Shown here piece after piece: positions 1 through 63,967 of a stretch of 64,000 nucleotides of DNA; the first letter of the stretch is position 1; each line of letters begins with the position of its first letter. The position numbers were made by a program, and so were the translations under genes. The notes under the pieces were generated by a model. It saw nothing but the letters and a program-made list of their open reading frames with translations, was not told the DNA's origin and did not search any database. The stretch comes from Chiloscyllium plagiosum (lineage: Eukaryota): the NCBI RefSeq assembly GCF_004010195.1, contig NC_057719.1, positions 1,505,736-1,569,735 on the forward strand. Direction: 5' to 3'.

Positions 1-204
1 GGCCTATCACCCTCACCTTGACCTCCCTCCACCTATCGCATTTCCAAAGCCCCTCCCCCAAGTCCCTCCTCCCTACCTTTTATCTTAGCCTGCTGGACAC
101 ACTTTCCTCATTCCTGAAGAAGGGCTTATGCCTGAAACGTCGATTCTCCTGTTCCTTGGATGCTGCCTGACCTGCTGCGCTTTTCCAGCAACACAATTTT
201 CAGC
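1..204 (+). mobile_element. Penelope-like element 3' end (family A) with minimal hammerhead motif
   Basis: C-rich 3' UTR, then CTGAAGA(114-120)-a-GGGC-ttat-GCCT-GAAA-CGTC and tail gattctcctgttccttggatgctgcctgacctgctgcgcttttccagcaacac. A closely related tail is joined to PLE ORF residue at 63262-63967. Confidence 0.8.
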
Positions 205-510
205 TTATTTTTCTTAGTGCAGAGGAAGTCGAGAGTGACTTAATAATGAGAGGCCTGGATAGAGTGGACCTAGCAGAGAGGTCAGTTACTCGGGGGCAGA
301 GATTTATTTATTCTAAAGAAGGGTCACTGGACCCGAAACATTAACTCTGCTTTGCCTCCACAGAAGCTGCCAGACCTACTGAGTTTTTCTAGCAATTTCT
401 GTTTTTGTTTCAGATTTCCAATGCAGTCTTGTTGGTTTACTAAGGTCATTGATAGAACGATTAGAGGGACGTGAGAAAATCTTTCATCGCCAGAGGGTGA
501 TGGATGTCTG
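205..510 (+). mobile_element. Decayed CR1 LINE 3' fragment, interrupted by a PLE terminus
   Basis: atgagaggcctggatagagtgga...ggggcagagattta|aggtcattg matches CR1 3' ORF2 motifs seen in other copies in the window. Confidence 0.6.
307..441 (+). mobile_element. PLE terminus mini-insertion (family C)
   Basis: ctaaaga-a-GGGTC-actg-GACCC-GAAA-cattaactctg...cagaagctgccagacctactgagtttttctagca. Confidence 0.75.
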
Positions 511-682
511 ATGTGTACTGCCCAGTTCATTGTGGCTGGTTTTCAAGTTTTGTTTACTTGTATTCCCATGAGCCCTCTTGTGCTGCTTTACTTTATGAAA
601 AACACTGTATAAATGCTGTCTAACTCTGTCATCAAAGAGTCCTAAGGTTAGTTGTGATGATGGTACTTGCTGAACTGATTGA

Positions 683-1060
683 TATGATTTGATGTGTTAT
701 TGTCACATGTACTGAGATACAGTGAAAAATATTGTATTGAATGCTACCTAGACAAGTTATACTTTACATAAGTACGTCAGGATAATAGAACAGAATGCAG
801 AATATAGTGTTACAGATACAGAGAAGTTTCAGGGAAAGATCAATTCTAATATGAGAGTTTCATTTATAAGTCTGGGGAAGAAGCTGTTCCCAAATCTGTT
901 GGTACGTGTTTTCAAACTTTTGTATCTTCTGCCTGATGGAAGAGCGTATAACCAGGTGGGAGGGGTCTTTGATGATTTTGGTTGCTTGCCCGAGACAGTG
1001 AGGCGCATAGGTGGAGTCAGTGGATGGAAGCCTGTTTTGTGTGTTGGGCTGGACTGCCAT
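683..1060 (-). mobile_element. Rex1/Babar-type LINE 3' end
   Basis: Minus ORF KIIKDPSH...RQKIQ and tail acatgtgacaataa resemble the end of the 31280-32580 copy. Confidence 0.65.
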
Positions 1061-3133: not shown

Positions 3134-3205
3134 AAACCCTTGGGAATAAAACCACTCCAAACTTAATTTCCTCAAGAACGAGGTGTACAGGGATTTCAAG
3201 TCCAA

Positions 3206-3486
3206 CCTTCCAAGTCGTCACTGCCTCCTGACTTGTCCATTTTCGTTCCCACCTATCTGCTCCACCCTCCTCTCCAACCTATCACTTTCACCTACCTATC
3301 GCACTCTCAGCTATCTTCCCCCCCCCCATCCCCCCAGCCCCACCTGCACCCCCCTCCCATTTATTTCTGAGCCCCTGTGGGCCACCTCCTCATTCCTGAT
3401 GTAGAGCTCATGTTCGAAACGCGATCCTCCTGCTTCTCGGATGTTACCTGACCAGCTGTGCTTTTCCAGCACCACAATCTTCCACT
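3206..3486 (+). mobile_element. PLE 3' UTR and terminus with degenerate hammerhead
   Basis: cccacctatctgctccaccctcctctcc...cctgatgtagagctcatgttcgaaacgc...gctgtgcttttccagcacc. Confidence 0.75.
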
Positions 3487-4360: not shown

Positions 4361-4556
4361 AAAAACCAAAAGGACTGTGGATGCTGTAAATTAGTAACTA
4401 AAATAGAAATAGCGGCAAAGCTCAGCAGGTTTGGCAGCATCTGTGGAGAGAAATCAGAGTTAACAGTTTGAATCGAGTGAAGGTCACTCTGATTTCTCTC
4501 CACAGATGCTGCCAGACCTGCTGAGCTTTTCCAGAAATTTCTGTTTTTGTTTTAAA
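4361..4556. mobile_element. PLE-derived hairpin mini-element (family C)
   Basis: Arms ctcagcaggtttggcagcatctgtggagagaaatcagagt / actctgatttctctccacagatgctgccagacctgctgag. TSD catcatttga(c/t)gt at 4348-4360 and 4557-4569. Confidence 0.85.
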
Positions 4557-5985: not shown

Positions 5986-6054
5986 TAGACTTTTTTTGCC
6001 CTCTGACTTGTGGTCTTAATCCCAATACATGCCTTTATAAAACATTTGGCCCCT

Positions 6055-6904: not shown

Positions 6905-7102
6905 TAAAAACTGAAAGAACTGCGGATGCTGTAAATAAGAAACAAAAACAGAACCTGCTGGAAAAGCTCTGCGGGCCTGGCAGCATCTGTGGAGAGAAAT
7001 CAGAGTTCTGAGGAAGGGTCATTCGAACTGAAACATTAACTCTGACTTTTCTCCACAGATGCTGCCAGACCTGAGTTTTTCCAGCAATTTCTGTTCATGT
7101 TA
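6905..7102. mobile_element. PLE-derived hairpin mini-element (family C)
   Basis: Inverted arms around CTGAGGA (7008-7014). Perfect TSD ctaaattatgggt at 6892-6904 and 7103-7115. Confidence 0.88.
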
Positions 7103-7479
7103 CTAAATTATGGGTGTTTCTCTTTAAGCTCAAAATCAAACAGGTGCCAGAAATCTCTAACAAACCTTGAGGACCTATTATTTACCTTGCTGGGTCACAA
7201 ATCAATCTAAGGTAAACAAAAATCCATCTAGGGTGCGCAGATTCAGGTGCTAGGCCTCAAAATTTGTTTAAATAAATCACCATGGCTACAGAAATACATG
7301 CAATTTAATTATTACATTGCGACACACACAAACCCACTGATTACTAACTTAAAAACCAAAAGCCAAAACTTAGAATTAATGTATAGAAATCCCACAGCTT
7401 ACATCACAACATAAATATAGATTTTGCAATTTGGGTATAGGAATGACCTGTGAACTGCTTAAGTAGAGAGCAGCATATG

Positions 7480-7785
7480 GTAAAGTGTCTGTTAATAATA
7501 ACAATGAGACAATAGGAGATGTAATAAAAAAAGTCAAAGACAGACGCACCCATCACTGCATGGTAGCATTACTTGTACACTGGCCTGATGCCTACAATGG
7601 CTTAACAAGCTCAAAGCAGCAATACTCAAGGTCATTTGGTAGATTCATGTATGAAACCTGTGGCAAAACTTGGCCATCAAGGATTGCCCTTCACATCCAT
7701 CAGTGAAGGTGTCTGTTATAAAGATACCCCGTATGGATCTGATGGATTGATTGTTGCAATCCTTCGATGACAGAAGAAAGACCTG
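7480..7785 (+). mobile_element. RTE-clade LINE 3' end (decayed)
   Basis: TCGKTWPSRIALHIHQ resembles the RTE C-terminal CxxCG...RIGLxSH motif. Confidence 0.55.
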
Positions 7786-8507
7786 AAAGGAACGGCTGTT
7801 GGCAAAGCTGTTTAATTGCTCCCAGCCCTCCAGTGATTGTGAATGAAAGACCTTCAACTAATTGCAGCCAGTAATCCTAATTTGTTTCTGTTGTCATTCA
7901 GTCCTTAATTGTAGTGTGTGAAGAGTAGCCAATGTGAAACCATTTTTGCATTACAGGGATAGTGGCTTCTGGCTAATCTTCGTGCTATGATCAAAGAATG
8001 GATCTCAATCAGATCACTGGAAAGGAGTTGAACAGGAGCTGTTCAAAGATAAAAGCACCTTGCAGTGCTTTATTATTGTAATGGGTTCTGTTTGAAGTGC
8101 AGAACGATTCCACAATGCACTGGGCTAAACTGTTTACATTACTATGTCAAAGCAGATGGTGACGCCCTTGTATTTTAGGCAAAATCTGCTTGTACAGCTG
8201 ATTAGAGCATTGAGGGTGAAGAATGACTTAATGTGCCTGTAACTAGCTGCTTAGCTCAGAGAGTGGTTGCAATGTCGAACATTCTACAACAAAGAGTGAC
8301 AAATATGATTAGTATTTAGGGAGAGGTACATGAGGTGGTGGAGTGGTATAGAAGGTCTAATTGGTATAAAGTGGGAGGAGTGCCTGTGTGGACTTCTGTG
8401 CTGAATGGTCTAATTCTGGGATGTCATAATTGTATGTAAACATAGGGAATTTTAAAACTCTGCCTGAATCTGAGATGGCTGTTGGCTGTCCTGGGTTAGT
8501 CATGGTG

Positions 8508-8637
8508 AGGAGAAAGTGAGGTCTGCAGATGCTGGAGATCAGAGATGGAAATGTGTTGCTGGAAAAGCGCAGCAGGTCAGGCAGCATCTAGGGAACAGGA
8601 GAATCGACGTTTCGGGCATTAGCCCTCCTTCAGGAGA
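8508..8637 (-). mobile_element. PLE terminus mini-insertion (family A)
   Basis: Same outer end (gagaaagtgagg) as 23587 and 42141; the inner end is at the hammerhead core. Confidence 0.85.
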
Positions 8638-12095: not shown

Positions 12096-12184
12096 CTGAT
12101 GAAGGGCTTTTGCCCGAAACGTCGATTTCGAAGCTCCTCGGATGCTGCCTGAATTGCTGTGCTCTTCCAGCACCACTGATCCAA
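12096..12184 (+). mobile_element. PLE terminus mini-insertion (family B) starting exactly at the hammerhead core
   Basis: CTGATGA-a-GGGC-tttt-GCCC-GAAA-CGTC. TSD agt(g/a)cagcaaa at 12085-12095 and 12185-12195. Confidence 0.9.
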
Positions 12185-12646
12185 AGTACAGCAAAGGTTT
12201 ACCAGATGGTTTCCATGAGATTGGGGGACTGATATAGAACATAGAACATTACAGCGCAGTACAGGCCCTTCGGCCCTCGATGTTGTGCCGACCTGTCATA
12301 ACAATCTGAAGCCCATCCCACCTACACTATTCCATGTATGTCCATATGCTTGTCCAATGACGACTTAAATGTACTTAAAGTTGGCGAATCTACTACCGTT
12401 GCAGGCAAAGCATTCCATACCCTTACTACCTCTGACATCTGTCCTATATCTATCACCCCTCAATTTAAAGCTATGCCTCCTTGTGCTCGCCGTCACCATA
12501 CTTGGAAAAAGGCCCTCCCTGTCCACCCTATCTAACCCTCTGATTATCTTATGTCTCTGTTAAGTCACCTCTCAACCTTCTTCTCTCTAATGAAAACAGC
12601 CTCAAGTCCATCAGCCTTTCCTCGTAAGACCTTCCCTCCATATCAG

Positions 12647-12805
12647 AGCTGAAAATGTGTTGCTGGAAAAGCACAGCAGGTCAGGCAGCATCCAAGGAAC
12701 ATGAGAATCGACATTTCGGGCGTAAGCCCTTCTTCTGTTCCTTGGATTCTCCTGTTCCTTGGATGCTGCCTGACCTGCTGCGCTTTTCCAGCAACACATT
12801 TTCAG
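12647..12805. mobile_element. PLE-derived hairpin mini-element (family A)
   Basis: Inverted arms; perfect 16 bp TSD cttccctccatatcag at 12631-12646 and 12806-12821. Confidence 0.9.
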
Positions 12806-13408
12806 CTTCCCTCCATATCAGGCAACTTCCTAGTAAATTTCCTTTGCACCCTTTCCAAAGCTTCCACATCCTTCTTATAATAAGATGACCAGAACTGTAC
12901 ACAATATTCCAAGTGCGGCCGCACCAGAATTTTGTACAGCTGCAGTATAATGTCCAGGTTCCGGAACTCGATCCCTCTATTAATAAAAGCTAAAATACTG
13001 TATGCCTTCTTAACAGCCCTGTCAACCTGGATGGCAACTTTCAAGGATCTGTGTACATGGACACTGAGATCTCTCTGCTCATCTACACTACCAAGAATCT
13101 TACCATTAGCCCAGTACTTTGCATTCCGGTTACTCCAACCAAAGTGAATCACCTCACACTTGTCCGCATTAAACTCCATTTGCCACCTCTCAGCCCAGCT
13201 CTGCATCCTATCTATGTCTCTCTAACCATAACATTCTTCATCACTATCCACATCTCCACCGACCTTAGTGTCGCCTGCAAATTTACTAACCTACCTTTCT
13301 ATGCCCTCATCCAGGCCATTTATAAAAATGACGAACAGCAGTGGACCCAACACTGACCCTTGCGGTACACCACTGGTAACTGGACTCCAGGATGAACATT
13401 TCCCATCA

Positions 13409-13655
13409 CAAAAAGACACGACCCTCTCTCCCTCGTAGCCCTACACACGGATGAAAGAAGCCACCACATCTATCCTGGGGCAGGCTAAGCAAAGGCATGC
13501 CAGAGAATTCCTAGAGGCCTGGCACTCCAACCACAGCGCCATAAACAAACACACAGATTTAGATGCCATCTATCAACTCTCAGAAAACGAACAGGAAATG
13601 ACATCACCACAAACCCCAGGAACCCCATCCAGCTCAGCGAGCAAACCTACACCCT
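13409..13655 (+). mobile_element. Poseidon-type PLE fragment (GIY-YIG C-terminal region)
   Basis: TSILGQAKQRHAREFLEAWHSNHSAINKH; flanked by atttcccatca on both sides. Confidence 0.8.
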
Positions 13656-17671: not shown

Positions 17672-18390
17672 TCGCTGAGCTAGAAGGTTCATTTTCAGAT
17701 GTTTCTTCACCATACCAGGGAACATCTTCAGTGAGCCTCCGGACAAAGCACTGCTGATGTTTCCTGCTTTCTGTTTATATGTTTGGGTTTCTTTGGGTTG
17801 GTGATGTCATTTCCTGTCCTTTTTCTCAGGGGATGGTAAGTGGGGTCCAAGTCAATGTGTTTGTTGATAGAGTTCCAGTTGGAATACCATGCTTCTAGGA
17901 AATCTCGTGCGCGTCTCTGTTTGGCTTGTCCTAAGATGGATGTGTTGTCCCAGTCGAAGTGGTGTCCTTCCTTATCTGTATGTAAGGATACTAGTGAGAG
18001 GAGGGTCATGTTGTTTTATGGCTGGTTGATGTTCATGTGTCCTGGTGGCTAGTTTTCTGCCTGTTTGTCCAATGTAGTGTTTGTTACAGTTCTTGCATGG
18101 TATTTTGTAAATCACATTAGTTTTGCTTGTTATCTGTAGGGTCTTTCAAGTTCATTAGCTGCTATTTTAGTGTGTTGGTGGGTTTGTGGGCTACCATGAT
18201 GCCAAGGGGTCTGAGTAGCCTGGCAGTCATTTCTGAGATGCCTTTGACATAGGGGAGAGTGGCTAGGGTTTCTGGACGTGTTTTGTTTGCTTGTTTGGGT
18301 TTGTTGCTGAGAAATTGGCAGACTGTGTTCATTGAGAACCTACATCCAGAACCTCAACCTGAGCTACAAGACTTCTCAAAACTCAGAAGT
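17672..18390 (-). mobile_element. Poseidon-type PLE 3' portion with inverted terminal piece
   Basis: Minus ORF HTDKEGHHFDWDNTSILGQAKQRRARDFLEAWYS; degenerate hammerhead ctgaagatg...gaaacatc near 17698-17732; cttttaa on both flanks. Confidence 0.85.
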
Positions 18391-20105
18391 CTTTTAAAAT
18401 TGAGATGTTATACAATACAGTACAGAACAGGAGCAGGCCCTTCAGTCCACCCAGCCTCTGTCAATTCCTATTCCTTATTTAGAGCCCCCAGTTATTGCCC
18501 ATGCTTGGCATTTATCTCTTTGTTCGCCTCACAATTCATGTGTCTATCAAGATATGCCTTAAATGTTACTAATGTGCCTGGCAGTGCATTCCAGGTACCA
18601 ACCACATTCTGAGTGAAAATTATTCCCTGCACTTCTTCCCTTAACCTTCCCCCTCTCACCTGTGCCATCTTGTAGTTGAACATTCCATCCTGGGAAAAAG
18701 CTTCTGACTATCCACTTTATTTATGTGTCTCATAATTTTGTAGACCTCTAACAGGTCACCCCTCAGTCTCAGCCTTTCCAGTGAAAACAATCCACGTTTA
18801 GCCAATCTCTCCTCATAGCTAAAACCCAGCAGACCAAACAACATCCTGGTAAACCTTCTCTGTACCATCTCCAAAGCATCTACGTCCTTCTGGTGATGTG
18901 GTGACCAGCCATGCACGCAGTATTCCAAATGTGTGACCTAACTGAAGTTTTACACAGTTGTAACATATCTTTCCAACTTCTTTATTCAGTGCCCCAGCTG
19001 ATGCAGGCAGGTTTGCTGTATGCCTTCTTGACCATCTTATCCACCTGTGTTGTCACTTTCAGTGATCTGTGGACCTGTACACTAAGATCCCTCTATATGT
19101 CAATTCCAAAAAGCACGCTTCCACCGCTGCTCTCTGTCATCTTTGACCAAGCCAGCTTTGTATCTGTCTAGCCAACTCAGCCCGGATCCCATGAGACTCT
19201 ACCTTCTGCAGCAGACTGCCATGAAGTGCAATACTAAAGTCCATGTAGACAATATCCACTGCCCTTTCCTCCTCGATTATTCTTGTCACCTTCTCAAAAA
19301 AACTAAATCAAATTGGTCAGGTGTGACCTTCCCTGCACAATTCCATGCTGCCTATCATTTGCTTCCAAATGTGAATAAATCCTGTCTGTCAGTAACTTCT
19401 CCAAGGGCTTCCCCACCACTGACATCAGGCTCATTGGCCTGTAATTTCCTGGATAATCTCTGTTTCCCTTTTGAAACAAAGGAACAACATTGACCATTCT
19501 CCAGTCCTCTGGAACCTCGCCTGAGGCCAAAGAGTATGCAAAGATGTCTGTTAAGGCCCTCGTTATATCCTCCCTTGCCGCCTACACTATCCAGGATAGA
19601 TCCCATCTGAGCCTGGGGACTCATCTATCTTAATGCACTTCAAGACACCAAACACTTCCTCTTTCATTTTGTTCAATTGGTTCTCCTTCATACACTGAGA
19701 GTATTCATGCACCTTTAACTCATTCCCAGGTATCTGTTGTTCTAACAAGTGTTTGGTCATTTGTCTTGGTTTTGGCTTGGTTTGAATTTTTGTTTGATTG
19801 GACTCCTATGAAGCACTCTGGGACATAGAGTCATAGAGATGTATAGCACAGAAAACAACCCTTCGGTCCAATCCATCCATGCTGATCAGATATCCGATAT
19901 CATATCAGACTCCCCCACTCCAGGTAAAAGACCTTGACTGTTTATCCTATCCATGCCCCTCATGATTTTATAAACCTCTATAAGGTCACCCCTCAGCCTC
20001 CGACACTCCAGAGAAAACAGCCCCAGCCTATTCAACCTCTCCTCATAGCTCAAACCCTCCAACCCTGGCAACATCCTTGTAAATCTTTTTGAACACTTTC
20101 AAGTT

Positions 20106-20880
20106 TGATGAAGTAACAAAGAGGGTTGATGAGGGCAGAGCAGTAGATGTGATCTGTATGGACTTCAGTAAGGCATTTGACAAGGTTCCCCATGGGAGAC
20201 TGATTAGCAAGGTTAGATCTCATGGAATACAGGGAGAACTAGCCATTTGGATACAGAACTGGCTCAAAGGTAGAAGACAGAGGGTGGTGGTGGAGGGTTA
20301 TTCAGATAAATGCGAGGTGCTGCATTTTGGGAAAGTAAATCTTAGCAGGACTTATACACTTAATGGTAAGGTCCTAGTGAGTGTTGCTGAACAAAGAGAC
20401 CTTGGAGTGCAGGTTCATAGACAAAGTCTTTTCCCTGGGGTCGGAGTGTCCAGAACTCGAGGGCGTAGGTTTAGGGCGAGAGGGGAAAGATGAAGAGCTT
20501 TTGCCCGAAACGTCGATTTTACTGCTCCCCGGATACTGCCTGAACTGCTGTGCTCCTCCAGCACCACTAATCCAGAATCTGGTTTCCAGAATCTGCAGTC
20601 ATTGTTTTTATCTAAAGATATAAAAGAGACCTACGGGGCAACTTTTTCACGCAGAGGGTGGTACGTGTATGGAATGAGCTGCCAGAGGATGTGGTGGAGG
20701 CTGGTACAATTACAACATTTAAGAGGCATTTGAATGGGTATATGAATTGGAAGGGTTTGGAGGGATACGGGCCGGGTGTTGGCAGGTGGGACTAGACTGG
20801 GTTGGGATATCTGGTCGGCATGGACGGGTTGGACCGAAGGGTCTGTTTCCATGCTGTACATCTCTATGACTACGACTCTT
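20106..20880 (+). mobile_element. CR1 LINE with internal deletions
   Basis: DEGRAVDVICMDFSKAFDKVPHGRL; full 3' UTR. Confidence 0.9.
20492..20613 (+). mobile_element. PLE terminus mini-insertion (family B)
   Basis: gaagagcttttgcccgaaacgtcg...gcagtcattgttttta; TSD aaagat. Confidence 0.85.
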
Positions 20881-22947: not shown

Positions 22948-24190
22948 AGTCATAGTGATGTACAGCATGGAAACAGACCCTTCGGTCCAACTCGTCAATG
23001 CCGACCAGATATTCCCAACCCAATCTAGTCCCACCTGCCAGCACCTGGTCCTTATCCCTCCAGACACTTCCTATTCATATACCCATCCAGATGGCTTTTA
23101 AATATTGCAATTGTATCAGCCTCCATCACTTCCTCTGGCAGCTCATTCCATACACACACCACCCTCTGAGTGAAAATGTTGCCCCTTGGGTGTCTCTTAT
23201 ATCTTTCCCCTCTCACCCTAAACCTATGCCCTCTAGTTCTGGACTTCCCCACCCCAGAGAAAAGACTGTCTATTTATCTTATCCATGCCCCTCATGATTT
23301 TATAAACCTCTGTAAGGTCACCCCTCAGCCTCCGATGCTCCAGGGAAAATAGCCCCAGCCTATTCAACCTCTCCCTATAGCTCAAATCCTGGCAACATCC
23401 TTGTAAATCTTTTCTGAACCCTTTCAAGTTTCACAACATCTTTCTGATAGGAAGGAGACCAGAATTGCACACAGTACTCCAACAGTGGCCTAACCAATGT
23501 CCTGTACAACTGCAACATGACCTCCCAACCCCTGTACTCAATACTCTGACCAATAAAGGAAAGTATACCAAATGCCTCCTTCACTAGGAGAAAGTGAGGA
23601 CTGCAGATGCTGGAGATCAGAGCTGAAAGTGTTGCTGGAAAAGCGCAGCAGGTCAGGCAGCATCCATGGAGCAGGAAAATCGATGTTTTGGGCATGAGCC
23701 CTTTTTCAGGAAGGAGCCCTTCCTGAAGAAGGGCTCATGCCCGAAACGTCGATTCTTCTGCTCCTTGGATGCTGCCTGACCTGCTGCGCTTTTCCAGCAA
23801 TACATTTTCAGCCTCCTTCACTATCCTATTTACCCGCGACTCCACTTTCAAGAAGCTATGAAACTGCACTTCAATGTTTCTTTGTTCAGTAACACTCTAG
23901 GACCTTACCATTAAGTGTATAAATCATACTAAGATTTGATTTCCCAAAATGCAGCACCTCACATTTATCTAAATTAAACTCCATCTGCCACTTCTCAGCC
24001 CATTGGCCCATCTGATCAAGATCCCGTTTTAATCTGAAGTAACCTTCTTCATTGTACACTACAACTCCAATTTTGGTGTCATCTGCAAACTTACTAACTA
24101 TGCCCTTTATGCTCACATCCAAATCATTTACATAATTGACGAAAAGCAGTGGACCCAGCACCGATCCTTGTCACACTCCACTGGTCACAG
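22948..24190 (-). mobile_element. CR1 (HER1-like) LINE 3' 1.0 kb
   Basis: LGPLLFVNYVNDLD...SKFADDTKIG...WQMEFNLDKC (RT core FADD). Confidence 0.93.
23587..23810. mobile_element. PLE-derived hairpin mini-element (family A) with an intact hammerhead core in the right arm
   Basis: CTGAAGA(23723-23729)-a-GGGC-tcat-GCCC-GAAA-CGTC. Perfect TSD gcctccttcacta at 23574-23586 and 23811-23823. Confidence 0.92.
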
Positions 24191-33612: not shown

Positions 33613-33620
33613 GAGGGCTG

Positions 33621-33880: not shown

Positions 33881-34477
33881 TTAGCCCTATCAACATACCC
33901 AACGGAGTCTTAGGTGAGTGACAACATGTGTTCAAACTCCTGCTTAGTCTGTGAACTTCCAGACTTCAAATCTTCTAGGAGCCAGCTTGGGCATTTGGGA
34001 CCTGACAGTCCTGCCTGTGTCTGTACCATTGACTCCTCCCTCTTCCAAACCGGACTATGCTACTGTCTGGTGGTGTTTGATGGAGTAGCTGATTTATCAT
34101 GTCCCCCCACAGATGTAACTCTGCAGTTGATACTTAACCATTTTGCCTTGCCTGTAATTCTCTCCTGAAATCACTCCAAATCTCTTTGTTCCTTTTCAGA
34201 TCTTTGACCAAATACTTTGACTGTTAATCTGATATTAGATTAGATTAGATTCCCTACAGTGTGGAAACTGACCTTCAGTCCAACAAGTCCACACCGACCC
34301 TCCGAATATCTCCTGAGGTGGCTCAACGTGAATTTTTTTCTTAAAAGAAAACCAATAGAAATGCAGATGCTGTAGCTCAGAAACAAAAACAGAAGTTGTT
34401 GGAAAAGCTCAGCAGGTCTGGCAGCATCTGTGAAGAAAAATCAGCATTAACGTTTTGGATCCAGTGACCCTTCCTCA

Positions 34478-34762
34478 GAATCATAGAATCCCTGCAGTGT
34501 GGAAACAGGCAATTCGGCTCTACAACTTCACACCGAACCTCCGAAAAGTAACCCACTCTCCATCTCTATTACTCTATGTTTACCTCTAACTAATCCATCT
34601 GACCTACACATCTTTGAATTGTGGGAGGAAACTGGAGTACCCGGAGGAAACCCACACAGACACTGGGAGAATGTGCATACTCCACACAGACAGTCACCTG
34701 AGGCTGTAATCAAACCTGGATCCTTGACACTGTGAGGCAGCAGTGCCAACCACTGAGCCACC
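34478..34762 (-). mobile_element. HE1-type SINE
   Basis: Collinear with the other copies. Confidence 0.9.
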
Positions 34763-35142
34763 AAAAATGTTGCTTTATATGCACATGGTGGGGGAGGGGC
34801 TAAGGGGTAAACAATAGATGGGGATCGAGCCCAAAGAGAGAAGATCTCCCAGCATCCACATCCAGAAGATCATCAGCTGGCTTATACACCACCTCCAGTG
34901 GGATGCCAACACCAGACACACATTCCCTGCCCATCTCTTGCCCACCTTCCGCAGGGACCGTTCCCTCTGGGACACCCTGGTCCACTCTTCCTTCACTCCC
35001 AACAACCTCCTCCACCCTGCCCCACTGCACATTCCCTTGCATCTGCTGAAGGTGTGTCACCTGTCTGTTTACCACCTCCCTCACCAGTAGCCAAGGGCCC
35101 GAACATACCTTCCAGGTGAAGTAGCACTTTCCACAATCTAGT

Positions 35143-35486
35143 GATTGGACACTCTGGAGGCAGGAAGCATGTTTCTGCTGTTGGATAAGTCCCAAACATG
35201 AGGACACAGTTTAAAATTAAGGGGTAGGCCACTTAGAACAGAGTTGAGGAGAAACTTATTCACTCAGAGAGTGGTGGGTGTGTGGAATGCTCTGCCCCAG
35301 AAGGCTGTGGAGGCCAAATCTCTGGATACTTTCAAGAAAGAGTTGAATAGAGCTCTTAAGGATAGTGGGTCAAGGGTTATGTGGATAAGGCAGGAGCAGG
35401 ATACTGATTGAGGATGATCAGCCATGATCATAATGAATGGTGGTGCTGGCTCAAAGCGCAGAATGGCCTACTCCTGCACCTATTGT
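35143..35486 (+). mobile_element. CR1 3' end inserted in the PLE
   Basis: ttcactcagagagtggtgggtgtgtggaatgctctgcc; tctagt on both sides. Confidence 0.85.
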
Positions 35487-35941
35487 CTAGTCCACTGCAT
35501 TCATTGCTCTAAATGTGGCTTCTCTAAGTTGGGGAAGTGAAGCATAGACTAGGTGACTGCTTTGCAGAACATCTACAGTCTGCCCACAAAAAAGACCCTG
35601 AGCTTCCAGTTGCCTGCCACTTCAACACCCCACCCTGTTCCCTGGCCAACATCTCTGCCTGAGGTTTGTGGTAGTGTTCCTGTAAAGCCTTGCACAAGCT
35701 GGAAGAACAGCACTTCATTTTCCACTTGGGGACTTTGCAGCCGTGCACGCTCATATCAAGTTCAATAATTTTAGGGTCTGAACACTCACATGTCCTAGCC
35801 CCCTACTCCACACACTAGCTCTCGTTATCATATAGCCTGCCATTGCACACGACCTATTGTCAGCCACTGACAGTCTTCATTAACAGCTATTCACTCTCCC
35901 AGCCAGATCGTTATCCACTCCTTTGTCTGTCCAACTGCTCT

Positions 35942-36885
35942 TAGAGTCATAGGGATGTACAGCATGGAAACAGACCCTTCGGTCCAACCTGTCCATGCTG
36001 ACCAGATATCAAACCAATCTAGTCCGACCTGTCAGCACCCGGCCCATATCCCTCCAAACCATTCCTATTCATATACCCATCCAAATGCCTCTTAAATGTT
36101 GCAATTGTACCACCCTCCACCACATCCTCTGGCAGCTTATTCCATACACGTACCACACTCTGCATGAAAAGGTTGCCCCGTAGGTCTCTTTTATATCTTT
36201 CCCCTCTCACCCTAAACCTCTGCCCTCTACCTCTGCACTCCCCGACCCCAGGGAAAAGACTTTGTCTATTTATCCTATCCATGCCCCTCATAATTTTGTA
36301 AACCTCTATAAGGTCACCNNNNNNNNNNNNNNNNNNNNNNNNNNNNNNNNNNNNNNNNNNNNNNNNNNNNNNNNNNNNNNNNNNNNNNNNNNNNNNNNNN
36401 NNNNNNNNNNNNNNNNNNNNNNNNNNNNNNNNNNNNNNNNNNNNNNNNNNNNNNNNNNNNNNNNNNNNNNNNNNNNNNNNNNNNNNNNNNNNNNNNNNNN
36501 NNNNNNNNNNNNNNNNNNNNNNNNNNNNNNNNNNNNNNNNNNNNNNNNNNNNNNNNNNNNNNNNNNNNNNNNNNNNNNNNNNNNNNNNNNNNNNNNNNNN
36601 NNNNNNNNNNNNNNNNNNNNNNNNNNNNNNNNNNNNNNNNNNNNNNNNNNNNNNNNNNNNNNNNNNNNNNNNNNNNNNNNNNNNNNNNNNNNNNNNNNNN
36701 NNNNNNNNNNNNNNNNNNNNNNNNNNNNNNNNNNNNNNNNNNNNCTGAAAAACAACCCTCCACCACCACCCTCTGTCTTCTACCTTTGAGCCAGTTCTGT
36801 ATCTAAATGGTTAGTTCTCCCTGTATTCCATGAGATCTAACCTTGCTAATCAGTCTCCCATGGGGAACCTTGTTGAACGCCTTAC
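35942..36885 (-). mobile_element. CR1 LINE spanning an assembly gap (N 36319-36744)
   Basis: MRGMDRINRQSLFPGVGE...VWNKLPE; the RT region continues after the gap. Confidence 0.85.
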
Positions 36886-37400
36886 TCTTCTCTCTCTTTG
36901 GGCTTTATCTCCACTTATTGGTTACTCCTTACCCCCTCCACTAACCTCATCTTCTGCATGTAAACTGACATTTTTCTAGCTGCCATCAGTTCTGAGGAAG
37001 GGTCACCGGACCAAAAATGTTAACACTGATTTTTCTTCACAGATGCTGCCAAACCTGCTGAGGTTTTCCAGCAATTTCTGCTTTTGTTCCTGATTAAATT
37101 TTTCTTGGTGCTCTTGTAAAATTTCTTGAGATATTTCACTACATTAAATGCAATTTAGAAAGAAAGTAATTTCCGTATTCAGTCCTCAATGACTGTGTAA
37201 GTATATATTTCACAAGACCCCTCCAACCCCAATAATACTCTCTTCTGTCCTCTTGTCGCTCACACCCTCGCTCCCCACCTTCTCTGCAGCTGTAACACTG
37301 TATTCTGTACTCTCTTCTACTACTCTGATACACTCTGTATGGTACCATACCAAGTGTATGTATCTTGGTACATGTGACAACAGTAAATCAACAACTAACA

Positions 37401-37912: not shown

Positions 37913-38037
37913 CGAGGAAGGGTCATTGAACCAAAAACACTAACTCTGATTTTTCTCAGCCAGACCTGCTGAGCTTTTCCAGCAAGTTTTGTTACTGTTT
38001 CTGATTTACAGCATCTGCAGTGCTTTTGTTTTATTTT
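37913..38037 (+). mobile_element. PLE terminus mini-insertion (family C)
   Basis: Starts gaggaagggtca. TSD ctgc(t/a)gaacat at 37902-37912 and 38038-38048. Confidence 0.85.
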
Positions 38038-41115: not shown

Positions 41116-41229
41116 CATCACTTCTTTTGAACTTGACTTGCAGTGAAGCTCATGTCCATTGAGCCTCTTGCTGGATGGAATATGCAGTGTAGCTCTGGTA
41201 GATACTGTCCAGCCACTGGGAGAAAACAG

Positions 41230-41377
41230 CAATTCAGGCAGCATCCGAGGACAGGCAAAATCGACGTTTGCCCGAAACGTCGATTTTGTCTGTCCTCGGA
41301 TGCTGCCTGAATTGCTGTGCTCTTCCAGCACCACTAATCCAGAATCTGGTTTCCAGCATCTGCAGTCATTGTTTTTA
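41230..41377. mobile_element. PLE-derived hairpin mini-element (family B)
   Basis: TSD ccactg(g/a)gagaaaacag at 41213-41229 and 41378-41394. Confidence 0.9.
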
Positions 41378-42048
41378 CCACTGAGAGAAAACAGTTGAGG
41401 ATTTTTACAATGACCACCTCTGTGGCTGAGGATGGGAGATCCTTCTGTAGATACTGCAATTGGTCTTAACTTTATCCTTGAATGAGGTCTCAATTGTAGT
41501 ATCACAGAGTTCTCCTGGCCTGCTGTCCTTCTTCCAGACGAGAGAGAATGGTCATATGCAAGTCTAGGTTGCTTCTCCATTGCAGTTTTGTATGACTTTG
41601 GGGATTCCATCTGCGCCAATAGCCTTGTTGGGTGGCTAGGATAGTAGATGTGGCTGTGATGCATTCATGGTATAAAATTCACCAAAGCTGTCTCAATTGA
41701 TTCACTTAGGTGATGTAACTCAGAGCGCCTGTGAAATCATTACCCAGCAGGGTAGCATTCTAAACTGAAATTCAAATGTCAAAAATCTTGGCAACAAATA
41801 CCCTGTGCTATGGATTTTAAAAAAAATTCTACATTTCGATCATGTGTCTTGAAGGAGCGAGGCTGTCATGGCAGCAGATTCTAAACTGCATCATCTGCCT
41901 GCAGCTAATTCTCACTGTCAAGGTGGTGATTCAGCACACACACACATACACACACACACACAAACCTAGATTTGTTCAATATATAATTTCAGTTGCATGA
42001 CACTGTAATCTTTTGCTATAAATTCTGTGTCTTATGGTCCTGCTCCAC

Positions 42049-42088
42049 AGCTACCTGATGAAGGAGCAGTGCTCCGAAAGCTAGTGCT
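42049..42088 (+). ncRNA. Minimal type I hammerhead ribozyme motif
   Basis: agctac-CTGATGA(42055-42061)-a-GGAGC-agt-GCTCC-GAAA-GCTA-gtgct: core intact, 5 bp stem II, AGCT palindromic stem III, CUA cleavage triplet, short bulged stem I. Confidence 0.7.
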
Positions 42089-42140
42089 TCCAAATAAACC
42101 CGTAGAACTATAACCTGGTGTCGTGTGATTTTTAACTTTG

Positions 42141-42267
42141 AGAAAGTGAGGACTGCAGATGCTGGAGATCAGAGCTGAATGAGGGCTTATGCCCGAAACG
42201 TTGATTCTCCTGTTCCTTGGATGCTGCCTGACCTGCTGCGCTTTTCCAGCAACACATTTTTCAGCTC
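42141..42267. mobile_element. PLE-derived inverted mini-element (family A)
   Basis: Perfect TSD tgatttttaactttg at 42126-42140 and 42268-42282. Confidence 0.9.
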
Positions 42268-43734
42268 TGATTTTTAACTTTGTCCACCCCAGTCCAATTC
42301 CGGCTCTTCCATATCATCTGTAGGTCCTGCCTGACCTGTTGAGCATTTGTAGCATTTTCCCTTCATAAATTTGTTTCTTGACAATATTAGTTGAGGGATA
42401 AATGTTAGCTGCGGTAAATGCGAGACCCTGTCATCTCTTTCAGCCACTTGAGAGTGCTTCAGGCCTTTGATTGACATCACATTGGAACAATGGCATATCC
42501 AACAGTGCAGCAATCCCTCAACATGGTAATGCAGTATTACCCAAGATTTTGACCTCTAGTTTTTGCTGTGAAAGTCAGATCTTCTAAAGCGGAGGTGAGA
42601 GAGAGCATTGAACCAGGACTGACATGCCAGCAATATTTTCATTGTATGGTGACCAGGCATTACAAATCCTTGCTACTTTTGAGTTCCTTCTCTTGTATGC
42701 CTTCCTAATTCAGGGTGAGACTCTTTTAAAGGCCAAACCTATGAAAACCATTTTCCACTTATCTTCTCACTGGGAGCCGAGATGGTGATGTAACTGAGCT
42801 GATCTGTCTGTTGCTTCTTACACCAGAAGCCCGTACAAAGGGAATGTTGTATTGTCATACTGCAGCAGATATTGCCAGCAGAGCTCCAGACTGGGTTTGG
42901 TGGATTTTAAAGATCACATTGCACTGTTTGAGGAAAAGTAGGACCATTTTGACAGCTTTTGTTCAGTGGTGCTTTTTTATCTATCACCAGAAGTAAATTG
43001 CTTGGTGTCTCTCACTACTCATACTGAGAGCTTGTTGCATATGAAGTAAGAACTACAGTACGTATATGAACATCAAATTTACAAATGTTCATTGTTATGA
43101 ATGCAGTCCCATTACACGTGTGTAATTTTTAAGATCCAACAGATGCACTTTTTCTATTATGAAACAGCTGCTTTATATTGTCCTGTACTGTGTTCCGACT
43201 TGCGAATCAACTCCAGAATGGAACCCATTCACAGCCTAAGGGCTGCCTGTAGTAGTCATTATACCTAAAAGTAGCATTTCAATTGACATTAATATCACAT
43301 GCTATAAAAGTGCTAGTTCTTTCTGATTGCTCTGGACAGTGACGTTTACCCACAGAGTTGACCTTATTCCTTCAAAAAGCAATGTTGTTAGAGTAATAGC
43401 TTTACATGCAATGTTTCCATGCTGATTGGTTTTCGCTATCCGCTCAGGCACAGCTCTTGTGATCACTCACTGTTAGAGGCTGGAGCTTTGTTCACATGCA
43501 AATTTTAATATGAAAGAAGGAATAAGACATGCAATTCAAGTGATCAATCGTCGTATCCTCACTTGTTTCAAATGCAGAATATTATGTCATTCTCCTCTTA
43601 TCTGTTTGTACAGTAAAGTGATTGAGTTAGGAAGTTGTAGCTAACATAATCCTCAATCTTCCATTTGGAAGTTCATTTTGATGCCTTTAGTTGTACTGTG
43701 TCAATTCTAGGGGTTTGTTCTTCCTTATCCCTTA

Positions 43735-43975
43735 TGGTTAAAAATCACATAACACCAGGTGAGAGTCCAACAGGTTTATTTGAAAATACAAGCTTTCAGA
43801 GCGCTGCACCTTTGTCAGGTGGCTATTGGGGCAGGATCATAGGACACAGAATTTATAGTAAAAGATGAAAGTATCATACAACTGATGTGATGTATTGAAC
43901 AAACCTAGTTTGCTGTTAAGTTTTTAATCACTTAGAATAGGTTGCAGGTTTTGATTGATTAATATGTAAATCCCT
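43735..43975 (-). mobile_element. PLE terminus (family D, diverged)
   Basis: aaaaatcacataacaccagg...agctttcagagcgctgcacctttgtcaggtgg. Confidence 0.75.
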
Positions 43976-44039
43976 CAGAGTTATCACTGATTTCCACCGA
44001 AGCCCCTCCATGTCAATATTAATGATTCTGGAATCCTCA

Positions 44040-44965
44040 TCCAGAAGGTGGTCTGAGGAGTGGCAGTTGGAATTTAATTTAGATAAATGTGAGGTGCTGC
44101 ATTTTGAAAAGGCAAATCAGGGTAGGACTTATGCACTTAATGGTAAGGTCCTGGGGTGTGTTGCTGAACAAAGAGATCTTGTAGTACAGGTTCATAGTTC
44201 CTTGAAAGTGGAGTCGCAGGTAGCTAGGATAGTGAAGAAGGCGTTTGGTATGCTTTCCTTTATTGGTCAGAGCATTGAGTACAGGAGTTGGGAGGTCATG
44301 TTGTGGCTGTACAGAACATTAGTTAGAACACCTTTGGTGGAATACTGTGTGCAGTTCTGGTCTCCCTCCTATCGGAAGGATGTTGTGAAACTTGAAAGGG
44401 TTCAGAAAAGTATTACAATGATGTTGCCAGGATTGGAGAGTTTGAGCTGGAGAGGGAGAGGCTGAATAGGCTGGGGCTGTTTTCCCTGGAGTGTCGGAGG
44501 CTGAGGGATGACCTTATAGACGTTTGTAAAATCATGAGGGGCATGGATAGGGGTGGGGGAGTCCAGAACTAAACGATGTAGGTTTAGGGTGAGAGGGAAA
44601 AAAATATAAAAGGGACCTAAGGAACAATGTTTTCATGCAGAGGGTGGTGCATGTACAGAATGAGCTGCCAGAGGAAGTGGTGAAGGCTAATACAATAACA
44701 ACATTTAAAAGGCATTTGGAGGGATATGGGCCAAATGGTAGCAAATGGGACTAAAATAATTGAGGATATCTGGTTGGCATGGATGTGTTGAACCGAAGGC
44801 TCTATTCCATGCTGTACATCTCTGTGACTCTAAGAATGAGGTTTCTGCTTATGGGCCAGGTGCTGGCAGGTGGGACTAGATTGGGTTGGGATATCTGGTC
44901 GGCATGGACGGGTTGGACCGAAGGGTCTGTTTCCATGCTGTACATCTCTATGACTATGACTCTAT
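44040..44965 (+). mobile_element. CR1 3' region plus a second tandem 3' UTR (about 44850-44965)
   Basis: WSEEWQLEFNLDKCEVLHF...EYCVQFWSPSYRKD. Confidence 0.9.
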
Positions 44966-47440: not shown

Positions 47441-47635
47441 AGAATCATAGTCATACAGAATGGAATTAGTCCCTTTGGTCCAACCAGTCCTGGCTGACAA
47501 TGTTCCCAAACTAAACTAGTCCCACCTACCTGCATTTGGCCCAAATCCTTCCAAGTATTTCATATCCATGTACTTATCTCAATGTCTTTTAAACGTAACT
47601 GGTACCTGCATCCATGACTTTCTCTGGAAGTTCAG

Positions 47636-47730
47636 AGTTGATCAAGTGTGGCGCATGAAAAGCACAGCAGGTCAGGCAGCATCCGAGGAGCAAGAGAAGT
47701 CGACATTTCGGGCTTAACCCTTCATAAGAA
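47636..47730 (-). mobile_element. PLE terminus mini-insertion
   Basis: Perfect TSD ctggaagttcag at 47624-47635 and 47731-47742. Confidence 0.88.
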
Positions 47731-55994: not shown

Positions 55995-56300
55995 GTGTAC
56001 AGGTAATACTGGAGAAACTCAGTAGGTCTGGCAGTATCTGTGGAAAGAGAAACAGTTTTATCATTTCCAGTCTGAGAGTCATACCAGACTGAAAATGTAC
56101 TGGACCCTAAATATTAACTCTGATTTCTCTCCACAGATGCTGCCAGGCTGCTGAGCTTTTCCAGCAGTTTCTGTTTTTGTTTCTGATTTTCAGCATCTGC
56201 AGTTCTTTTGGTTTTTATTCTAAATGTTGGCTGTTTTTCTCTCTAGAGATCTCCTAAGTTTCTCCAGCATTCTGTTTTCATTTCAGATTTCCAGCATTGC
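55995..56300. mobile_element. Old PLE hairpin containing a second PLE terminus (56099-56222)
   Basis: Outer arms ctggagaaactcag / agtttctccagca; inner family C piece flanked by aaatgt. Confidence 0.7.
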
Positions 56301-56394
56301 TTTACTTGTGTTCTAATGTCTGTCATCTTTCTTTTCTACTCAAACGATGCTTTTCTAGTGTTCAAAAGCTGAGAACAACTCAGATGCACCACTT

Positions 56395-60368: not shown

Positions 60369-61745
60369 TGAGTCACAATTAATTAGAATGGACGGCTTTG
60401 AGGTATGTAGGGAAGAGGTGTTGGAAATTCTGGAAAGGGTGAAAATAGATAAGTCCCCTGGGCCTGATGGCATTTATCCTAGGATTCTCTGGGAAGCAAG
60501 GGAGGAGATTGCAGAGCCATTGGCCTTGATTTTTATGTCCTCATTGTCTACAGGAATAGTGCCAGAAGACTGGAGGATAGCAAATGTGGTTCCCTTGTTC
60601 AAGAAGGGGAGTAGGGATAATCCTAGTAACTATAGGCCGGTGAGCCTCACTTCTGTTGGGGGCAAAGTCTTAGAGAGAATTGTAAGGGATAGGATTTATG
60701 AACATCTGGATAGGAATAATGTGATCAAGGATAGTCAGCATGGTTTTGTGAAGGGCAAGTCGTGCCTCACAAACCTTATTGAATTCTTTGAAAAGGTGAC
60801 GAAGGAGGTTGATGAGGGGAAAGCGGTAGATGTGGTATAAATGGATGGCTTGGCCCTTTCTGTCCTATTCCAGGCTGTTTCTCCTGGAATGGGAGAAGGG
60901 AAGGAAGGAGTGAGGGTAGCCCTGCTGTGAGTGCTGGTGTAGGTGGATGGGGGAAGGGTGAACTGTCAGGATAGAGTCTGTCCAAAGTGTTGTATCCACG
61001 CCATGTTATTAGTGGGCAGGGCTATTGTGTCAGTGACAGAAAAAGTGGGGGAAGAAAGGTGCTGAATTCAATAGTAAGAGTGGTCTGTGGTTTGTACACA
61101 GATCTCTGAAAGTTGCCACCCAGGTAAATAGTGCGGTGAAGAAGGCATATGGCGTACTGGCTTTTATTGGTAGAGGAATTGAGTTCCGGAACCCTGAGGT
61201 CATGTTGCAGTTTTATAAGACTCTGGTGCAGCCTCATCTGGAGTATTGTGTGCAGTTTTGGTCGTCATACTATAGGAAGGATGTGGAGGCACTGGAATGG
61301 GTGCAGAGGAGGTTTACCAGGATGTTGCCTGGTATGGTAGGAAGATCGTATGAGGAAAGGCTGAGGCACTTGGGGCTGTTTTCGTTGGAGAAAAGAAGGT
61401 TTGGGTTGACTTGATAGAGGTGTACAAGATCGGGGTTTAGATAGGGTCGACAGTGAGAACCTTTTTCCACGTATGGAGTCAGCTATTACGAGGGGACATA
61501 GCTTTAAATTAAGGGGTGGTAGGTATAGGACAGATGTTAGGGGTAGATTCTTTACTCAGCGAGTCGTGAGTTCATGGAATGCCCTGCCAGTAGCAGTGGT
61601 GGACTCTACCTCTTTATGGGCATTTAAACAGGCATTGGATAGGCATATGGAGGATAGTGGGCTAGTGTAGGTTAGGTGGGCTTGGATCGGCGCAACATCG
61701 AGGGCCAAAGGGCCTGTACTGCGCTGTATTTTTCTATGTTCTATG
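60369..61745 (+). mobile_element. CR1 LINE with the central RT replaced by unrelated sequence
   Basis: Open 150 aa KSPGPDGIYPRIL...QHGFVKGKSCLTNLIEFF; C-terminal part and 3' UTR from about 61095. Confidence 0.92.
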
Positions 61746-63261
61746 TACTCTGAGCAAAGAACCTACCTCTGCCATCTGATCCCTCATTTAAAGCTATGTC
61801 CCGTCGTGCTAGCAATCCCCAGTACACTGTATCGAATCCTCTGATCATGTTGTATGCCTCTATTAAGTCACCACTTAACCTTCTTCTCTCGAACAAAAAC
61901 AGCTTCAAGTCCCTCAGCCTTTACTCATAAGACCTTCTCTCCAAACGAGGCAACATCTTGGTAAATCTCTTCTGAACCCTTTCCAAAGCTTCCGCATCCT
62001 TCCTTGTAATGCGGTGACCAGAACTGGAAGCAATACTCCAAATGCAGCTGCACTAGAGTTTTGTACAGCTGCAGTATGACCTGATGGCTCCGAAACTCGA
62101 TCCCTCTATCAATAAAAGCTAACATACTGTATGTCGCCTTAACGATCCTATCAACCTGGGTGGTAACTTTCAGGGATCTATGTACATGGACACCGAGATC
62201 TCTCTGCTCATCCACACTACCAAGAATGTTCCCATTAGCCAAGTACTCTATATTCCTGTTGCTCCTTCCAAAGTAAATCACCTCACACTTTTCCACATTA
62301 AACTCCATTTGCCACCTCTCAGCCCAGCTCTGCAGCTTATTTATGTCCCTTTGTAACCTGCAATATCCTTATACACTGTCCACAACTCCACAGACTTCAG
62401 TGTCATCTGCAAATTTACTAACCCATCCTTCTACGTCCTCATCTTATAAAAGTGACAAACAGCAGTGGCCCCAGAACAGATCCTTGCGGTACACCACTAG
62501 TAACTGAGCTTCAGGATGAATATTTCCCATCAATCACCACCACCTTTCTTCTTTCAGCTAGCCAATTTCTGATCCAACCCATTAAACCCCTTCAATGACA
62601 TGACTCCGTATTTTCTGCAATACCGTGGGGAACCTTATCAAACCACTTACTGAAATCCATATACACCACATCAACGGCTTACCCTCATCCACCTGTTTGG
62701 TCACCTTCTGAAAGAACTCAATCAGGGTTGTGAGGCACGACCTACCCTTCACAAGATCATGTTGATTGTCTCTAATCAAATTATTCCTTTCTAGATGATT
62801 ATAAATCCTATCCCTTATAACCCTTTCCGACACTTTACCCACAACCGAAGTAAGGCTCACTGGTCTATAATTACCCGAGTTGTCTCTACTCCCCTGCTTG
62901 AACAAGGGAACCACGTTTGCTATCCTCCAGTCTTCTGGCACTATTCCTGTAGACAATGACGACATAAAGATCAAAGCCACAGGCTCGGCAATCCCCTCCC
63001 TGGCTTTCCAGAGATTCCTAGGATAAATCCCATCTGGCTCAGAGGACTTATCTATTTTCACACTTTCCAAAATTGCTAACACCTCCGCCTTGTGAACCTC
63101 AATCCCATCTAGTCTAATAGCCTGTATCTCAGTATTCTCCTTGACAATATTGTCTTTTTCTAGTGTGAATACTGATGAAAAATATTCATTTAGTGTCTCT
63201 CCTATCTCTTCGGACTCCACGCACAACTTCCCACTACTGTCCTTGACTGGCCCTAATCTTA

Positions 63262-63967
63262 TTCTGGAGTAGAGTGGTGCTGGAAAAACACAGCAGTTCA
63301 GGCAGCATCCGAGGAGCAGGAAAATCAACGTTTTGGGCAAAAGCCCTTCATCAGGAATACAGGCAGAGAGGCTGAAGGGTGGAGAGATAAATGAGAGGAG
63401 TGGGGAGAAAGTAGAATAGAGTACAATAGATGAGTGGGGGTGGGGATGAAGGTGATAGGTCAGGGAGGAGAGTGGGGGAAGGTAGCAAAGGGTACAGTGG
63501 GTGAGTGGGGGTGGGATGAAGGTAATAGATCAGAGAGGAGGGTGGAGTGGATAGGAGGAAAAGAAGATAGGCCGGTAGGACAGATCATGGGGACGGTGCT
63601 GAGCTGGAAGTTTGGAACTAGGGTGAGGTGGGGGAAGGGGAAATGAGGAAACTGGTGAAGTCCACATTGATGCCCTGGGGTTGAAGTGTTCCGAGGCGGA
63701 AGATATATTGGTGGATGTGCAAGTAAAACTTTGGATGTGGAAGGCTCCTTCAGGGCCTTGGATAGAGGTGAGGGAGGAGGTGTGGGTGCAAGTTTTGCAA
63801 TTCGTGCGGTGGCAGGGGAGGGTGCCAGGACGGGAGGGTGGGTTGTAAGGGGGCATGGACCTGACCAGGTAGTCACAGAGGGAACGGTCTTTGCAGAAAG
63901 TGGAAAGGGGTGGCGAGGGAAATATATCCCTGGTGGTGGGGTCCGTTTGGAGGTGGCGGAAATGTCG
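63262..63967 (-). mobile_element. PLE 3' region (family B) with ORF remnant and hammerhead terminus
   Basis: Minus PGTLPCHRTNCKTCTH...FTCTSTN (Cys-rich linker preceding GIY-YIG); minus CTGATGA-a-GGGC-tttt-GCCC near 63325-63355. Confidence 0.85.

Follow-up and report, generated by a model that had tools for sequence, protein, structure and literature searches.

The 64,000-nt stretch of the Chiloscyllium plagiosum genome analysed here (NC_057719.1; the window, in whose coordinates all positions are given) is crowded with the ends of Penelope-like elements (PLEs). Judged by their sequence, the repeats at these ends are real minimal type I hammerhead ribozyme (HHR) motifs, carried by several PLE families: A (with a subfamily, A2), B, C, D and one degenerate candidate, E. 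Fuzzy family patterns and profiles delineate 34 arms in 25 insertions of PLE ends, one insertion per 2.5 kb, and PLE sequence makes up ~9.8% of the window bases; a weak fragment at 42327 was excluded from the arm count. Most copies are decayed stubs of 90–130 bases, and nine units are head-to-head pairs. Arm positions are numbered relative to core base C3. The features are listed below (UTR, untranslated region; TSD, target-site duplication; ORF, open reading frame; pLTR, pseudo-long terminal repeat; LINE, long interspersed nuclear element; RT, reverse transcriptase).

1–205, plus strand: family A PLE 3′ end running off the window start; pyrimidine-rich 3′ UTR 1–109, core 114–141, predicted cut after 141, short 3′ end.
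311–440, plus: family C stub; 5′ end −2, core broken.
3180–3482, plus: subfamily A2 long arm; degenerate HHR 3396, with 3′ UTR homology to the B copy at 63354.
4362–4552, unstranded: family C head-to-head pair; HHR partly lost, minus arm tailed, 13-bp TSD with one mismatch.
6907–7104, unstranded: family C head-to-head pair; plus HHR 7008 (5′ end −4), minus arm starting at the predicted cut site and sharing 4 stem I bases, 13-bp TSD.
8509–8635, minus: tailed family A stub; HHR 8633 with one core change, 5′ end −2.
12096–12183, plus: family B stub; core and stem II intact, stem I 5′ strand lost, 11-bp TSD with one mismatch.
12645–12807, unstranded: two family A arms, head to head, within a LINE RT remnant; 5′ starts at +2 and, behind a 9-nt filler, at the predicted cut site (+28), 16–18 bp TSD.
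17675–18400, minus: candidate family E; broken PLE ORF end with GIY-YIG 18142–17996, 3′ UTR, degenerate HHR-like motif 17731.
20489–20612, plus: tailed family B stub; 5′ end +2, 6-bp TSD.
23587–23812, unstranded: two family A arms, head to head; plus-strand HHR 23723 intact, minus-strand HHR 23709 broken, minus-arm tail, 13-bp TSD.
30954–31033, minus: old diverged C-type stub; 5′ end about −3.
31871–32088, unstranded: family B head-to-head pair; HHRs 31960 (minus) and 31963 (plus), plus-arm tail, 14–16 bp TSD.
33478–33605, minus: tailed family D stub; intact HHR 33603, 5′ end ambiguous (−2 or about −18).
33655–33846, unstranded: subfamily A2 head-to-head pair; motifs 33751 (minus) and 33750 (plus).
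34343–37093, plus: family C long unit; inverted pLTR 34343–34840 (minus) with HHR 34478 and another repeat inside it at 34485–34762, broken, apparently Neptune-type ORF end 34845–35752, 3′ UTR broken up by LINE sequence and an N gap, HHR 36992.
37914–38037, plus: tailed family C stub; 5′ end +2, 11-bp TSD with one mismatch.
41216–41379, unstranded: family B head-to-head pair joined within the HHR (+21/+13); 11-bp TSD with one mismatch.
41963–42300, plus: family D long arm; intact HHR 42055, family A insertion downstream.
42140–42268, unstranded: family A insertion nested in the D pLTR; inverted tail and stub at 42175, 15–17 bp TSD.
43737–44040, minus: family D long arm; degenerate HHR 43818, short 3′ end.
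47632–47728, minus: A2-type stub; 12-bp TSD.
55999–56073, minus: old diverged C-type fragment.
56099–56215, plus: tailed family C stub starting in loop II (+13).
63261–63967, minus: family B long arm; apparently Neptune-type ORF remnant 63967–63624 with a C-x4-CxxC linker and the GIY-YIG part deleted, 3′ UTR with a 70-bp duplication, HHR 63354 with G12 lost.

A strict minimal-hammerhead descriptor, the search that a preliminary description of this DNA had proposed as a check, finds five motifs (114, 12096, 23723, 33603 on the minus strand, and 42055) and none in any of 12 dinucleotide shuffles of the window. With one mismatch allowed, nine motifs are found against 0–2 in the shuffles (mean 0.42), and profile searches on the reversed window gave no matches. 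A plain scan for CUGANGA...GAAA returned 11 matches; 7008 and 17731 were retained from this loose scan as degenerate copies, and those at 3710, 8823, 26716 and 54812, which have no stem II or palindrome, were discarded. An Rfam scan of the window at E ≤ 10 yielded 19 hits, none to a hammerhead model, the top ones being microRNA (miRNA) models that sit on inverted pairs, all below gathering scores. Core, stem II and palindrome are intact in 5 of the 24 arms tabulated with a core region, and four of these five also keep at least 2 bp of stem I. The earlier estimate of roughly 20 copies agrees with these 24 arms, and the sequences it gave for 23723 (A), 12096 (B), and 42055 and 33603 minus (D) are exact. 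At 114 the motif stands, although the stem quoted as GCCC reads GCCT, with a G·U closing pair. The family C consensus was also right, with coordinates to be adjusted (the first copy starts at 313, not 314, and "34450 minus" is 34478–34449), and none of its five core-holding copies is intact. Further copies include subfamily A2 (3396, 33750/33751 and 47728), a third D copy at 43818 on the minus strand and candidate E at 17731, also minus.

The minimal type I architecture with a loopless palindromic stem III, recognized in that description, is seen across families A–D. The CUGANGA, GAAA and NUH boxes occur in order in the family majorities of A, A2, B and D; in family C the catalytic boxes are complete only when copies are combined. 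Helix II is closed by G10.1–C11.1 with an unpaired base after A9 in families A–D, and in candidate E two of its six pairs are broken, the closing pair among them. Stem II reads GGGC/GCCC in A and B, GGGTC/GACCC in C and GGAGC/GCTCC in D, and within A/A2 pair 10.2 is G–C, G·U (33750) or A–U (3396, 33751). The stem III palindrome is ACGT in A, B and C and AGCT in D. Stem I, absent from the earlier account, also changes between families and stays largely paired: it spans 4 bp in C (7008) and 3 bp in both D and E, and its first pair varies among families (C–G, U–A or A–U). Families A and B differ only at N7, in loop II and in the downstream sequence; their stems are identical and are therefore not family-specific, and the downstream sequence of both is common to C as well. 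The proposal of family-specific paired stems accordingly holds in that stems I, II and III change yet stay largely paired, and fails for A and B, which share one stem type. The window contains three well-supported stem types, not four, plus the degenerate candidate E.

Single-strand folds of 13 segments form stem II in seven (our own reading) and never the full hammerhead, as expected for a loopless stem III. A conserved small hairpin, TGCTG...CAGCA (for example 172–189), lies 10–20 nt before the short 3′ end in families A, B and C and is a candidate protein-binding or RT start signal. For comparison only, a pattern scan of metagenome contigs found the same architecture at at least 121 loci; among the 121 listed, 100 have CG or GC where the pattern permitted four options, 14 have PLE ORF similarity in their flanks and none has shark-family flanks. 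Two of these loci (L011 and L012) lie on one contig in an invertebrate-type PLE, as inverted motifs 2.5 kb apart, with ORF-start similarity beside one and ORF-end similarity beside the other.

We assign these repeats to PLEs because the motif ends the 3′ UTR of RT/GIY-YIG ORF remnants in families B and C and in candidate E. The PLE origin put forward earlier is likewise borne out by these remnants together with the pairs, TSDs and tails. Upstream of the B motif at 63354, the frame 63967–63704 is 87% identical to a Chiloscyllium punctatum protein that, with its relatives, matches RVT_1 and GIY-YIG. An inverted pLTR lies 5′ of the broken ORF at 34845–35752, and the C motif at 36992 follows this ORF across the split 3′ UTR. 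Both remnants carry a C-x4-CxxC linker (B, 63967–63704; C, 35029–35070). A CX2-5CxxC linker between RT and endonuclease (EN) is a mark of Neptune and also occurs in Nematis, according to the accessible part of PMC8557442, and by this Cys linker the B and C remnants appear Neptune-type, the window containing no RT core of these elements. The GIY-YIG remnant upstream of E is below the Pfam cut-off (E = 0.0019), the scores of the PLE remnants being near or just under it, and the E ORF remnant has no Cys linker. Subfamily A2 is tied to the PLE ORF family by the homology of its 3′ UTR to that of B, and family D bears the tail signature. A second E-type 3′ end, with the motif region deleted, lies at 13579–13650. 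In zebra shark, a predicted protein ends in LMKGLRPKRQL, and an in-frame reading of the B motif gives LMKGFCPKRRF, which suggests that the zebra shark PLE ORF may be followed by the same motif.

The insertions themselves have a consistent form. Families A, B, C and D each show short and tailed 3′ ends ~35 nt apart, and TSDs of at least 11 bp (range 11–18 bp) flank 10 of 21 units tested. Several units record individual events. The A insertion at 42140–42268 lies inside the D pLTR, between motif and tail, with its 15–17 bp duplication. At 4470–4490 half of the motif is missing from the plus arm, apparently through a jump, via 4 nt of microhomology, from loop II to a point immediately beyond the cut site. 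In the A2 pair, inverted symmetry runs ~40 nt into sequence other than the PLE tail (33614–33653 / 33848–33888), either as an inverted duplication of the flank or as an assembly artefact. The long C element was struck by three later insertions (34485–34762, 35131–35460 and 35939–36886), a short repeat and LINE-like pieces that we take to be a short interspersed nuclear element (SINE) and CR1. At 31500–32090 the B pair interrupts an RT-type LINE remnant on the opposite strand.

The positions at which copies start are strongly clustered. Eighteen of the 34 arms begin at −4 to +4 of the core, seven at +5 to +30, eight extend at least 90 nt upstream and one consists of a tail only; no arm starts between −8 and −90. 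Among the 26 arms reaching +4, 18 end by −7 and 0 of the remaining 8 end in −8 to −90, and none of 200,000 constant-hazard simulations placed 18 ends in any 12-nt interval. Four public runs aligned to positions 1–450 of the window, comprising DNA contigs of three species (X1, X12 and X16) and RNA reads (X21), extend the support for this clustering to sequence outside the window. Depth rises between bins 91–105 and 121–135 by 4.7-fold in X1, 8.3-fold in X12, 4.7-fold in X16 and 4.7-fold in the X21 RNA, a rise to which related families sharing only the downstream part may contribute. Position 110 (−4) is among the top listed loose ends in X1, X12 and X21, with mixed flanks (agreement 0.32–0.39), and in X1 and X12 it is the best listed upstream loose end within the family A copy. 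The same coverage drop may be present in Fig. S2 of PMC11167929.

This front-edge pile-up may mark where the copied RNA starts. We propose, tentatively and at slightly less than even odds, that about half of the complementary DNAs (cDNAs) end at −4 to +4 because that is where, within the upstream repeat, the template RNA starts. The hammerhead could be the 5′ boundary of PLE reverse transcription, through either an RNA start at its front edge, giving a strong-stop-like cDNA of 90–130 nt, or enzyme release; this, too, falls a little short of an even chance. Release would mean that RT lets go just after copying the ribozyme, as the nascent cDNA refolds stem II or a bound protein blocks the path and a weak 4–12 nt hybrid comes apart, much as at an intrinsic terminator, which we consider unlikely though well short of far-fetched. 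It would account for a pile-up whose distance from the core is constant across families A–D and subfamily A2 despite their differing upstream sequences, and for the seven further ends inside the motif, at +5 to +30. Against release, invertebrate-type families with the same fold have more scattered upstream shared lengths, of 1–59 nt or >240 nt, in a comparison of 12 families that sampled only copies with an intact core.

Two other sources of the boundary fare less well. Trimming of 5′ ends by the GIY-YIG endonuclease at an ATT just before the core would fit the 5′-ATT-3′ preference of the anole enzyme (accessible part of PMC11167929), the ATTC at −4 to −1 in A and B and the listed genome-wide end at −4. 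However, C has AGTT and D has CAC/TAC with the same ends, and half of the clustered ends lie at 0 to +4, making this a long shot. A 3′ splice site as the general cause was rejected, an AG being present near −5 in D and −3 in C, whereas A and B lack one.

Cleaved RNA was also rejected as the main template route, since only 2 of 34 arms start at the predicted cut site, each with a microhomology alternative. The insertions thus point to mostly uncleaved templates, and self-cleavage of the shark motifs is a prediction. A further alternative, that the stubs are SINE-like or retrozyme-like non-autonomous elements copied from 90–130 nt masters, possibly via self-cleaved circular RNA, draws on the very many copies of near-equal length and on non-LTR (long terminal repeat) retrozymes, which derive from PLE pLTRs and are found in one chondrichthyan (accessible part of bioRxiv 2026.07.22.740005). 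We regard it as improbable: the window has no head-to-tail motif array (three tandem rows were found, none covering the motif), 5′ ends vary by several bases, junctions differ between copies, ORF-bearing long arms share the same 3′ ends and cut-site ends are rare.

Taken together, we favour, with a probability of about 85%, a reading in which these are minimal HHR motifs in the terminal repeats of EN-containing (EN+) PLEs, mostly dead 5′-truncated stubs that the element's own RT likely made from uncut RNA. If the anole PLE is a guide, both target strands would be nicked by the protein of the element, cDNA synthesis would begin at either of two sites that lie ~85–100 or 120–135 nt from the core on its downstream side, and microhomology would join pairs of opposed cDNAs. 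Copies started in the downstream repeat would continue into the 3′ UTR and ORF. Selection would have kept the fold in master elements, where cleavage would depend on dimer formation or on help from the element protein; insertion itself would not require cleavage.

Several observations weigh against this reading or parts of it. The computed active dimer fold lies 7.6–18.6 kcal/mol above the dimer minimum for all eight copies computed, stem I of A and B is weak (2 bp, a U·U and 1 bp), and no promoter or capped 5′ end was seen for the elements. Within the window, family D has no ORF link and no full-length copy has two direct pLTRs, and candidate E is one degenerate, Poseidon-like copy. Each family supplied a single upstream reference for the reading of arm ends, and the two arms of each of the nine pairs are not independent. 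Cut-site starts make up two of the seven ends in +5 to +30 (about P = 0.03, by hand and post hoc). The −4 end is missing from the six loose-end rows listed for X16, and the loose-end evidence covers the matches listed, with 1452 further rows outside them.

Divergence, counted against family majorities, indicates how the copies have aged. Non-CpG changes number 18 of 252 in the core (7.1%) versus 93 of 1393 downstream (6.7%; Fisher P = 0.78), and 15 of 187 in stem II (Fisher P = 0.52); 9 of 51 core CpG positions are changed. Because the family C majority itself includes decayed CpGs, the non-CpG core rate is overstated for that family; leaving it out gives 6 of 175, still no lower than expected at this power. 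Single genomic copies decay neutrally, mostly at CpG. Because the core decays like the downstream sequence in these copies, structural selection is inferable for master lineages only, where three stem types, in place of a formal covariation test, suggest that it acted on the fold. The earlier proposal of structural selection across shark PLE lineages therefore survives for masters and not for individual copies. That genomic copies are functional ribozymes kept by host selection was already disfavoured and is very improbable. In four of 24 copies core, stem II and palindrome do survive, along with part of stem I, and family reads are present in polyA single-cell RNA (2,117 of 12.96 million records). 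Against this stand the core decay, as fast as downstream, the CpG-type lesions at G12 or stem III in 13 of 19 broken copies, and the reads themselves, which come from both strands and continue into unrelated sequence in 96% of cases, as expected for passive transcription. RNA molecule starts or ends show no pile-up in this polyA library, a library type blind to cleavage.

The genomic load is large, as previously surmised: contig records matching the 450-base stretch number 66,084, 63,835 and 92,431 in the three species, figures that are not copy numbers, and 7,044–7,995 of the matching records aligned only partly. With a genome size that we take to be 3–4 Gb, the window extrapolates to about 10^6 insertions and 2–3 × 10^5 intact motifs, a figure that one window cannot fix. 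A load of 9.8% of the window bears on how repeats are annotated and on the risk of false miRNA calls at the palindromes. If the boundary reading is correct, it would explain the inverted pLTRs typical of PLEs, as opposite-nick cDNAs joined head to head, and the motif would have a cleavage-independent role, a point of interest given that the role of PLE hammerheads has been called unclear (PMC8557442, accessible part). Carpet shark genomes would then be seeded with perhaps 10^5–10^6 ribozyme stubs, far beyond published vertebrate counts. The sharp front-edge boundary across families and three species offers a cheap test of PLE RNA start and of the origin of inverted terminal repeats.

We compared these features with the PLE literature (PMC8557442, PMC3846280, PMC6155905 and bioRxiv 443036, each in its accessible parts). 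The ribozyme class is already known, and the ribozyme finding alone adds cartilaginous fish to the list. PLE expansion in the whale shark is on record (bioRxiv 443036). The openly readable literature, outside of which lie subscription journals and Repbase reports, yielded no paper on shark PLE hammerheads and no description of 5′ ends clustering at the motif. Minimal HHRs in pLTRs of metazoan PLEs were described in 2014 by Cervera and De la Pena (PMC4209133), and in the accessible parts of that work they share with the shark motifs CUGANGA plus one extra base, G10.1–C11.1, GAAA, palindromic 15.2/16.2, NUH and a short helix I. In both sets, too, one genome holds several consensus families, most motifs are solo ones left by truncated PLEs, and close opposite-strand pairs occur. 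AGCU palindromes and H = A occur in the turtle, shrimp and Xenopus rows of its Fig. S3, which also lists 2-bp helices I for Drosophila and Culex, and the low activity it reports for the class agrees with the high computed energy of the active dimer. Unlike that set, in whose Table S1 or the Fig. S3 rows covered no cartilaginous fish was found, shark A/B helix I has an internal U·U, and the clustering of 5′ ends at the motif, seen in the shark arms, is not described in the parts available. Its top vertebrate counts are ~4,000 (coelacanth) and ~9,000 (Xenopus), against ~10^5 intact motifs extrapolated from the shark window.

Another close system is Poseidon_Ac (PAc) of Anolis carolinensis (Frangieh et al. 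2024, PMC11167929, accessible parts). In PAc, two 3′ ends bound a 30–40 nt tail, both target strands are extended, and uncut RNA is the main insertion template, RNA-seq giving no ends at the position of the cut; cutting by the ribozyme requires protein, and cleavage is dispensable in vitro. The shark tail corresponds to the span between the two RT start sites of PAc. Protein-assisted cleavage is established for PAc, whereas the shark motifs are known from sequence alone, and PAc belongs to the Poseidon clade with an ORF that begins in stem II, in contrast to the Neptune/Nematis-type Cys linker of shark B and C. Non-LTR retrozymes share the type I HHR, PLE-pLTR origin and chondrichthyan presence, but are head-to-tail tandem units (bioRxiv 10.64898/2026.07.22.740005, accessible part), whereas the window copies are dispersed, head-to-head and flanked by TSDs. 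As in described EN+ PLEs, whose TSDs are about 8–10 bp (Arkhipova et al. 2013, PMC3846280; Craig et al. 2021, PMC8557442, accessible parts), the shark copies show 5′ truncation, an adjacent inverted pLTR, an optional one-arm tail and palindromic junctions. They differ from the elements described in those parts in that most shark units are two pLTR stubs alone, and in that their junctions concentrate at the ribozyme front edge.

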